A DNA stretch of 59,085 bases, filler included, from Basidiobolus ranarum (taxonomy: Eukaryota): assembly GCA_040143965.1 (NCBI GenBank). It is 4 parts of 4 records of this genome, joined end to end, with 100 filler letters (N's around TTAATTAATTAA, not from the genome) between each part and the next. Parts side by side here need not be neighbours in the genome. Positions count along the whole stretch, not along the records: positions 44,444 to 59,085 come from JASJQH010007292.1; 3 more parts are not named here. One strand, given 5' to 3'. A program made the position numbers and the translations under genes. This document shows, in pieces, positions 54,473-56,416 of this stretch. A model generated the notes under the pieces. The model had not been told where the DNA came from. It saw only the letters and a list, made by a program, of their open reading frames with translations, and did not search any database. Each line of letters begins with the position of its first letter. Positions within the stretch are counted from its first letter, which is position 1.

Positions 54473-56416
54473 ATGGAGTCAAGAAGATCTTCTAGGTATT
54501 CATTTATTTAAAAAGAGATATTGGTCCCATTTATTTATCACCCTGTAATAGACCCAAAAAGCAAGTCGATTATACCATTAACTTGGAAACTGGAATATTT
54601 CACAACAATAAACCAAAGAGTCTCGATAATATGCCAGGTAATGTATTGGAAATACCATCACCCCTTCGATTGAAATAGTTATATTAAAAGAAAGAGTTGT
54701 GTTTTATTATAGATGACTTTGATGATTTTCGTTTAGAAGGAAATGAACGTAAAAAAATCGTCGATTCTGTACTGAAAGAAACACTTGAGACTAACAATAA
54801 GTAAACCTCCATTTCATTCTCCCTTTTCCTTTTATTTGAAAAGTTTGGTTTTTGAAGTGTTAATATTTATTATTTCTTATAACATAATAGAGAATCAAAA
54901 CGTCCACGTTTATCTGCTACGGAGAGAAAAGAACAAGCGGACCTTAAAAAAGCGTTGGAACTCTCTATGGTGGAAGAAGATTGTTTAGATAAAGGAAAAG
55001 TGGAACGTACTTTCGTTAAGGATATTTGGGCCGATCCCAACTTCTTTGGTAACCAGGAACGTCAACCTTCTCGTCGTAAAGAACGTAATTCTTCCAAAAG
55101 TGGTATCAATTCTGATACGCCATCTTCCAACAAACAAGAAACTTCAAATTCTTCTTCCAACACATCTTCCCAATCAACTGGTCAATCGAATCAAGTCACG
55201 GTCGATTCACTCCCGTTAAAGTCTATGGAAAAATCACCAAAACAGAAGAGTAAAAATTCAACACCTAGTTCAAAAGGTAATCAAATCTACTTTTCATTGT
55301 TAATCGATTCGTAAGTTAATCCCAGGAAATTTTAGAAATCGAGGATCTATTTGATGATGGAGATTTAAGTGATTCTAACGTAATAGATATCGTAAGTGAT
55401 GATGAAATGGCTTTGGTTCCCGAGGGAAAACGGAAATCAAAACCCTCTGGTCACATAGCTAAATTGGAATCCTCAGTACCTAAGAGTAATCAACCTGAGA
55501 ACCACATCTCCGAGAGTGACAGCAAAGAGGATCTCTCACATGGTTCTTCTTCAGTGGAAAATAAAGAGTTGGGTACAGTGGTCCCGTCTACAACAACCGA
55601 AATCAATATCGTTATCCCCAAAGTACGCCATAATACAGATTTGAACTTAGATATTGATGTTAATGATGCCAAAACTACTCCAAAGCGAAGATCCCCTCGT
55701 TCTGCACGAAAAAAGCAAACGAACACCACCAAATCAGATGATGCCAACGACAGTGAATTTGAACTTAACGAGCCGAACACAAAACGAAACCCAAAGTCGA
55801 CACCTAAGCCAATTTACAATTTGGACGATGTGAATGGTGAAAGTGAAAGTGAGTTCGAAGAGAAAGCACCCAAATCTAAACGAAAGATCAAATCCCCATC
55901 AAAACCCAAAGTTAAGAAAGTAGCAACACCCAAATCTCGAAAGATTGACAACGATGCCGATTCTGAGATTGGACATCCTCATACAGACGAGCTCTCTATG
56001 GATGCCGAAATAGAGGAAAGGACCAGTGATGTAGAAGATGAAGAATATCTACAGGGATCTCCTAATGACCCTAAAACCCCTAAAAACACTCGAACAAACA
56101 AGTCACGTACAACTCAGCTCAACATCACTCCTTCCAATAATACACCAAGTAGAACCCCTTCTGTAGGATTAAAGGTGTCTAGTTCTGTAAAGCCACTTTT
56201 ATTAACTAAGCCCACCGTTCAAACCAACAGCAGTAAATACCTGATTATTTGTATTATTGATTTACTTGAGCATGTTCTAATATCTATGTTACAGATGCTA
56301 GTGCTCGCAGCCCAGTAGTTTCAGGTGGACCAGCCCGGGTTGGGTTGTCAAGAAAGCACAAATTTAAACCACTACATCCATATTTACAATCGCCATCAAA
56401 AGTATCCCAGTCATAG
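54473..56416 (+). CDS. Disordered protein with RAD51AP1-type C-terminal RAD51-interaction motif, UIM-like and SIM-like motifs
   Basis: Six exons joined in phase by GT-AG introns (about 54473-54495, 54552-54637, 54713-54800, 54891-55276, 55336-56233, 56295-56416). N-term SRPKKQVDY...DDFDDF; EQADLKKALELSMVEE; VIDIVSDDE; C-term RVGLSRKHKFKPLHP. Confidence 0.75.

Follow-up and report, generated by a model that had tools for sequence, protein, structure and literature searches.

We analysed a stretch of 59,085 nucleotides from the genome of Basidiobolus ranarum (GenBank assembly GCA_040143965.1), hereafter the window, which consists of four parts of four records joined end to end with 100 filler letters between them. 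All coordinates given below are positions in the window, of which 44,444 to 59,085 come from record JASJQH010007292.1. On the plus strand, at 54473-56416, lies a six-exon gene for a protein of 533 amino acids that ends in a motif like the RAD51-binding peptide of human RAD51AP1. A sequence-only reading of this locus had described it as a RAD51AP1/NUCKS1-like protein in an early-diverging fungus; B. ranarum does belong to an early-diverging fungal phylum, the Basidiobolomycota. The gene is real, and its product, judged by sequence comparison, is very probably a RAD51AP1-type protein that binds Rad51.

Tests of splice sites by script gave six exons whose joined frame of 1602 nucleotides contains one stop codon, at its end. 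Exon 1 (54473-54495) provides the start codon, the residues MESRRSS and the first two bases of Arg8, and is followed by the donor GTATTC at 54496. Exon 2 (54552-54637) encodes RPKKQVDY (residues 8-15), the basic motif of the N-terminus, followed by a variable linker; exon 3 (54713-54800) encodes the acidic DDFDDF (residues 37-42) and ERKKIVDSV; exon 4 (54891-55276) encodes a segment resembling a ubiquitin-interacting motif (UIM) and a Ser/Thr/Asn-rich spacer; exon 5 (55336-56232) encodes the long middle part, putatively disordered, in which acidic and basic patches occur; and exon 6 (56295-56416) includes the TAG stop codon at 56414-56416. The five introns (56, 75, 90, 59 and 62 nucleotides) are all of the GT..AG type, starting with GTA and ending with TAG or CAG, and G+C content is 40.1% in the exons versus 26.6% in the introns. 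If any one of the five is read through, translation stops within 1 to 28 codons, short of an in-frame entry into the next exon. The motifs first noted at this locus were all located: SRPKKQVDY spans the junction of exons 1 and 2, DDFDDF spans that of exons 2 and 3 (54637 joined to 54713-54729), EQADLKKALELS is found at 54931-54966, and RVGLSRKHKFKPLHP had been placed correctly at 56336-56380.

The model equals, letter for letter, a deposited 533-amino-acid protein (P0001, 'hypothetical protein K7432_007943 [Basidiobolus ranarum]', NCBI). Employing exon 5 as the query, we retrieved one protein, again P0001, whose UniRef name is 'RAD51 interacting motif domain-containing'. The whole protein was also searched with phmmer against 1.84 billion representatives, starting from a single sequence, where a profile would have reached further. 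Four proteins were returned at E<=0.001, the query included: the orthologue from B. meristosporus (P0002, 509 amino acids, 55% identity), a second B. ranarum protein (P0003, 321 amino acids) and an N-terminal fragment (P0004, 145 amino acids). The gene model is colinear with P0002 at 55-56% identity. B. ranarum seems to have a diverged paralogue, a second copy of the gene annotated as two fragments, with P0004 as its N-terminal and P0003 as its C-terminal half; the annotation of P0003 has apparently translated the counterpart of intron 5 into protein.

Intron 5 (56233-56294; 62 nucleotides, GTAAAT..TTACAG) has to be removed for the Rad51 motif to be in frame. The sequence-only reading had recognised this last intron, with its start off by one nucleotide (56234). 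The treatment of the homologous intron in P0003 as coding sequence would fit an annotation artefact, in which the last exon is part of a different transcript or is not joined on in this frame. We consider such an artefact extremely improbable: all splice sites follow the canonical pattern, and without splicing the frame does not stay open; P0002, which was deposited separately, has the same junction and the same C-terminus and aligns across the intron 5 junction without a break; and a protein of Bifiguratus adelaidae (P0006) also joins the motif and the UIM-like segment in one chain. The splicing of all five introns is thus a prediction from sequence logic and the orthologue.

The RAD51-interacting motif is encoded at 56324-56386 (plus strand, residues 504-524), with the core RVGLSRKHKFKPLHPYL at residues 508-524. 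Compared with the Pfam family RAD51_interact (PF15696, gathering cut-off 25 bits), the translation of the last exon scored 28.1 bits (E 2.3e-6), and the other four of the five exon translations scanned gave no match at E<=10. The Bifiguratus protein scored 29.0 bits. When the last exon was searched against 177,635 distinct PDB sequences, there were two matches at E<=10, both to human RAD51AP1 (9qnc_B, E 0.11; 9qn8_B, E 1.2). In these alignments the fungal peptide shares the R, G, L, S and R of human LRLGLSR and the complete KPLHP, has V in place of L334, and keeps the four-residue length of the spacer between the two blocks. The C-terminal human peptide given in the sequence-only reading agrees with the PDB chain, which runs a few residues further.

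The residues shared with the human protein are those that touch RAD51. According to the report on the cryo-EM structure of the human complex (PMC12704761), 'Site-M' of RAD51AP1 comprises 332-LRLGLSR-338, where R333 pairs with D50 of RAD51 and a hydrophobic pocket takes L334 and L336; at 'Site-C', L345 and H346 enter a shallow groove of RAD51; and the substitutions L336Q and H346A weaken the binding between the two proteins. All five named contacts (R333, L334, L336, L345 and H346) are kept in the B. ranarum protein with equal spacing, L334 as Val.

Based on a five-sequence alignment, the C-terminal motif is the conservation maximum of the protein (0.84), and its flanks drop to 0.04-0.3. The motif stretch ends at residue 526, two residues past the end of the core (524), and leaves 7 residues to the C-terminus of P0001. 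The pattern [RK][VI]GL[ST]R-x4-K-x-LHP is present in 10 of 10 motif-bearing proteins, and in 9 of the 10 it lies no more than 7 residues from the C-terminus; the sole exception, P0008, looks like a mispredicted fragment.

A word-index search with residues 474-533 gave 19 candidates, of which three had E<=10, all from Basidiobolus. A profile built from three Basidiobolus C-termini (A3) and compared with 5.8 billion proteins gave 10 matches at E<=10 among 1397 candidates, namely the three from Basidiobolus and seven others. These others are P0006 of Bifiguratus adelaidae, one protein each from a scorpion and a horseshoe crab, RAD51AP2 of mouse and bat, and two unnamed proteins; PF15696 had been assigned beforehand to all seven. 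In a scan of metagenomes with the C-terminal profile, none of 183 pattern matches was confirmed by tblastn, and the full-length alignment (A4) contained no stretch conserved enough to serve as a metagenome query.

Several Pfam results weigh against a Rad51-binding protein of this type. The last exon passes the PF15696 cut-off and the whole protein narrowly misses it, with 24.1 bits; P0002 (22.8 bits) and P0003 (19.4 bits) are likewise below it; and the alignment covers positions 19-39 of the 39 in PF15696, with 1-18 unmatched. The composition of the protein is biased (77 serines and 61 lysines among 533 residues), and profiles of the same region also match the linker of the Oct-1 POU domain spuriously. 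A real gene whose C-terminus is a basic low-complexity tail, resembling the RAD51AP1 peptide by chance and not binding Rad51, might give such results. Yet this tail is the most conserved stretch, at 0.84 identity against its poorly conserved flanks; it is retained in the paralogue, which has only 39% identity over the matched stretches; each named human contact residue is retained at exact spacing; and the matches of the motif profile outside Basidiobolus are without exception PF15696 proteins. Chance resemblance is therefore, in our judgement, very improbable.

The Oct-1 POU linker match itself (profiles A1 and A4; window 56090-56350, plus strand, residues ~450-512; best E 1.2e-4) was rejected as a composition artefact, because it consists of a Ser-rich linker followed by GLSRR and K, the region is unconserved in Bifiguratus, and the match has no functional coherence.

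Upstream of the C-terminal motif, conservation in the five-sequence alignment peaks at residues 1-15, 66-95, 191-225, 366-390 and 466-490, in addition to 506-530. The R-x-KK-x-x-Y pattern of exon 2 is retained in P0002, P0004 and P0006, with a conservation of 0.62 over residues 1-15. Aligned with MAFFT, the N-terminal R-x-[KR]K-x-[VP]-x-Y and the acidic DD..F coincide in P0001, P0002, P0004 and P0006, and DDFDDF is matched by DD[LF]..[DE]DF in P0004 and P0006.

The UIM-like motif EQADLKKALELS (54931-54966, plus strand, residues 80-91) reaches a conservation peak of 0.71. Its core, hydrophobic-x-x-A-x-x-x-S, is present in all four proteins that hold the region (P0001, P0002, P0004 and P0006). 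Pfam UIM (PF02809, cut-off 21 bits) scored under its cut-off throughout, with 15 bits for exon 4 (E 0.023), 13 for the whole protein and 12 for P0004; the fungal profile A5 aligned the segment weakly to the STAM2 chain 5ixf_A in PDB (E 1.3). A sequence resembling a SUMO-interacting motif (SIM), IDIVSDDE, was found with a permissive regular expression at 55383-55406 (plus strand, residues 211-218), within the acidic block EIEDLFDDGDLSD..SDDE; conservation over residues 191-225 is 0.57-0.67. In human RAD51AP1, a SIM mediates the binding to UAF1, whose SUMO-like domain it contacts (PMC12751084).

Two basic patches follow on the plus strand, KRRSPRSARKKQT at 55683-55721 (residues 311-323), a candidate DNA-binding or nuclear-targeting element, and another at 55863-55943 (residues 371-397), a candidate DNA-binding element with a net charge of up to +11 in 25 residues and a conservation of 0.5-0.58. 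Further downstream, GLKVSSSVKPL (56166-56198, plus strand, residues 472-482) appears as a degenerate copy of the GL-x6-KPL core. This half-motif begins 38 residues before the main motif, has a conservation of 0.72-0.80, and is present in P0001, P0002 and P0003, with none in P0006.

The lysine-, serine- and glutamate-rich middle had been described as disordered. For the protein as a whole, ESM Atlas gives a model with a predicted local distance difference test score (pLDDT) of 0.40 and a predicted template modelling (TM) score of 0.14; the grand average of hydropathicity is -1.22, and the isoelectric point is 8.77. By these values the 533-amino-acid protein is intrinsically disordered; it is probably nuclear. 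For residues 470-533, ESM Atlas returned no usable feature match, and the structure matches, obtained with a disordered model, were all below TM 0.36.

Outside Basidiobolus, the combination of motifs recurs in the Bifiguratus protein (BZG36_04146, Mucoromycota, 407 amino acids, likewise named 'RAD51 interacting motif domain-containing' in UniRef). BLASTP of P0001 against P0006 gave two colinear matches, one at the C-terminus (E 4e-8) and one in the UIM-like region, between residues 60-101 and 71-112 (E 2e-5). P0006 has an N-terminus of the R-x-K-x-V-x-Y type, an acidic DD..F, the UIM-like segment and the C-terminal motif in the same order as P0001; it differs in its 28% overall identity, in lacking the upstream half-motif and in having FLPP, of the FxPP type, at residue 30. 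The C-terminal motif is thus conserved in two fungal phyla, Basidiobolomycota and Mucoromycota. The FLPP of P0006 stands just past the N-terminal acidic run, and none is present in Basidiobolus. Motifs of this FxPP type ('P-motifs') bind recombinases in BRCA2 and related proteins.

Human RAD51AP1 (PIR51; PDB 9qn8 and 9qnc; PF15696) is like the fungal protein in carrying its RAD51 peptide at the extreme C-terminus, with equally spaced Site-M and Site-C contacts (PMC12704761), and in being disordered, rich in lysine, serine and glutamate, and provided with a SIM-type motif in an acidic block (PMC12751084), a candidate one in the fungal protein. It is shorter, with 364 amino acids in the PDB construct versus 533. 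The fungal protein in turn lacks the WVPP of 'Site-N', leaves the first half of PF15696 unmatched, has a degenerate GL-x6-KPL upstream and ends its motif in HPYL; its N-terminal part bears a weak likeness to the human RAD51AP1 family in a protein language model.

NUCKS1, the vertebrate paralogue of RAD51AP1, is a disordered, charged chromatin protein with homology to RAD51AP1 throughout, and PMC4787752 describes it as lacking the RAD51-interacting C-terminus and as not binding RAD51. The fungal protein has this motif and would therefore be of the RAD51AP1 type, not of the NUCKS1 type.

RAD51AP2 is a vertebrate, meiosis-specific protein, and its mouse and bat sequences RVGLSRR-x3-KQLHPYLK are very near the fungal motif. 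PMC1636435 gives it more than 1100 amino acids and calls it unrelated to RAD51AP1 elsewhere; the fungal protein has the size of a RAD51AP1, to which its N-terminal part also points (the ESM Atlas lead described below, score 0.75). Because RAD51AP2 carries the motif on an unrelated protein, landmarks beyond the C-terminal motif matter for any claim of orthology.

The sequence-only reading had counted three landmarks shared with human RAD51AP1 in the same order. The C-terminal one is borne out by Pfam and PDB; the N-terminal and internal ones found no counterpart in six PDB searches. These were HMMER searches with whole P0001, whole P0006, exon 2, exon 4 and two fungal profiles (A4 and A5), and in none did an N-terminal or internal segment align with 9qn8_B, the human chain in full length; a PDB search with profile A1 likewise aligned nothing N-terminal or internal with human RAD51AP1. 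An ESM Atlas feature search over 7.7 million clusters was made with residues 1-130, which exclude the Rad51 motif. Its third-ranked hit was a chordate cluster named 'putative RAD51-associated protein 1', with a score of 0.75, where scores below 0.9 count as leads only. Landing by chance on a RAD51AP1 cluster among 7.7 million seems unlikely, in an estimate to which we attach no figure.

Common descent with RAD51AP1 meets further objections besides the failed N-terminal and internal matches. The Atlas score of 0.75 is within a range often reached by shuffled sequences. No [FW]xPP, the form of the human DMC1/RAD51 'Site-N', is present in P0001, P0002 or P0003, and in human RAD51AP1 the WVPP P-motif at this site binds DMC1 and also RAD51 (PMC11229353 and PMC12704761). 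The whole-protein phmmer search found few relatives: of its four proteins three are named as Basidiobolus and the fourth is the fragment P0004, so that no other genus is named. The HPYL ending is at least as near to the forms in RAD51AP2 and arthropods as to human RAD51AP1, and RAD51AP2 bears the same C-terminal motif on a protein that is 'otherwise totally unrelated' (PMC1636435).

The few relatives, the HPYL ending and the RAD51AP2 precedent, together with the finding that HMMER against the full-length human chain gives the C-terminal 20 residues or nothing, would fit a Rad51 binder that shares only the docking peptide with RAD51AP1. Such a peptide would have been gained by motif shuffling or by convergence on a lineage-specific disordered scaffold; the protein would be no orthologue and would say nothing on the age of RAD51AP1. 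We regard this explanation as rather unlikely. Residues 1-130, devoid of the motif, still rank the chordate RAD51AP1 cluster third, with a weak score; size, disorder, charge pattern and the extreme C-terminal position of the motif are RAD51AP1-like, whereas the RAD51AP2-type matches of profile A3 measure 848-1562 amino acids; and the ordered N-terminal, UIM-like and C-terminal motifs are common to two fungal phyla.

We favour, with fair though limited confidence, a RAD51AP1-type Rad51-binding protein that shares common descent with RAD51AP1. Since a single landmark is supported and RAD51AP2 provides a precedent, orthology and an origin of opisthokont age are not demonstrated; on the sequence comparisons, orthology is likely, and with it the early origin. 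The comparisons establish the gene model, the motif with its residue-by-residue match to the human contacts, and its presence in two fungal phyla; that the protein binds Rad51 and DNA, what its other motifs do, and its shared ancestry with animal RAD51AP1 are deduced from them.

In the mechanism we propose, the C-terminal RVGLSR-x4-KPLHP would contact Rad51 in the way known from human RAD51AP1, the Leu-His of KPLHP occupying a shallow groove in the ATPase domain ('Site-C'). DNA may be held by the lysine-rich patches (residues 311-323 and 371-397), so that the protein would tether duplex DNA to the Rad51 filament and stabilise it during strand invasion or synapsis. For the UIM-like and SIM-like motifs, a role in recruiting ubiquitin- or SUMO-like partners is probable. 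It is a speculation that the upstream GL-x6-KPL half-motif may replace the missing WVPP site.

A more far-reaching version of the favoured reading is tentative, and we lean slightly away from it. It holds that the protein is a true RAD51AP1 orthologue from the common ancestor of fungi and animals, since lost or diverged beyond recognition in yeasts and other Dikarya, the fungi in which the biochemistry of recombination was worked out. The ancestral protein would have combined the C-terminal Rad51 peptide with a basic motif at the N-terminus, a SIM and a ubiquitin-interacting motif; the Basidiobolus half-motif would do the job of WVPP on a neighbouring Rad51 protomer; and the UIM would reflect a ubiquitin-reading function of the family that has gone unrecognised.

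To our knowledge, RAD51AP1 has been studied only in vertebrate systems. It is called vertebrate-specific in the literature (PMC1636435 and PMC3401455). In a full-text literature search, no fungal RAD51AP1 homologue was treated, as judged by titles and the beginnings of abstracts of the best-ranked matches, supplements excluded (Supplementary Figure S1 of PMC4787752 is a species comparison). The gene model and a machine-assigned domain label are already public, and the fungal protein is unpublished in the literature searched. The gain in knowledge is moderate, because the UniRef label already exists and orthology and binding are deduced.

Fungal members in two early-diverging phyla would place the origin of the Rad51-docking module, and probably that of the factor as a whole, earlier than the divergence between fungi and animals. 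If so, RAD51AP1 would have been lost in the model yeasts, and vertebrates would have acquired the WVPP site later. A minimal core would then consist of what has persisted over that distance, namely the Site-M and Site-C contacts and the UIM-like and SIM-like segments. Some Mucoromycota are genetically manipulable, and members of this phylum might serve for studying the factor.

Three further open frames were noted around the gene, all on the minus strand. The antisense frame of 107 amino acids at 55490-55813, inside exon 5, gave no hit in Pfam and probably arose by chance. A cyclin-domain gene lies about 3 kb upstream on the strand opposite to the gene, with an open frame of 271 amino acids (50486-51301) that matched Pfam Cyclin (PF08613) with 43.1 bits and Cyclin_N with 26.4 bits. 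Downstream, an open frame of 79 amino acids (57490-57729) gave a weak match to the CYTH domain (17.3 bits, under the cut-off of 23.2) and is probably one exon of a minus-strand gene.

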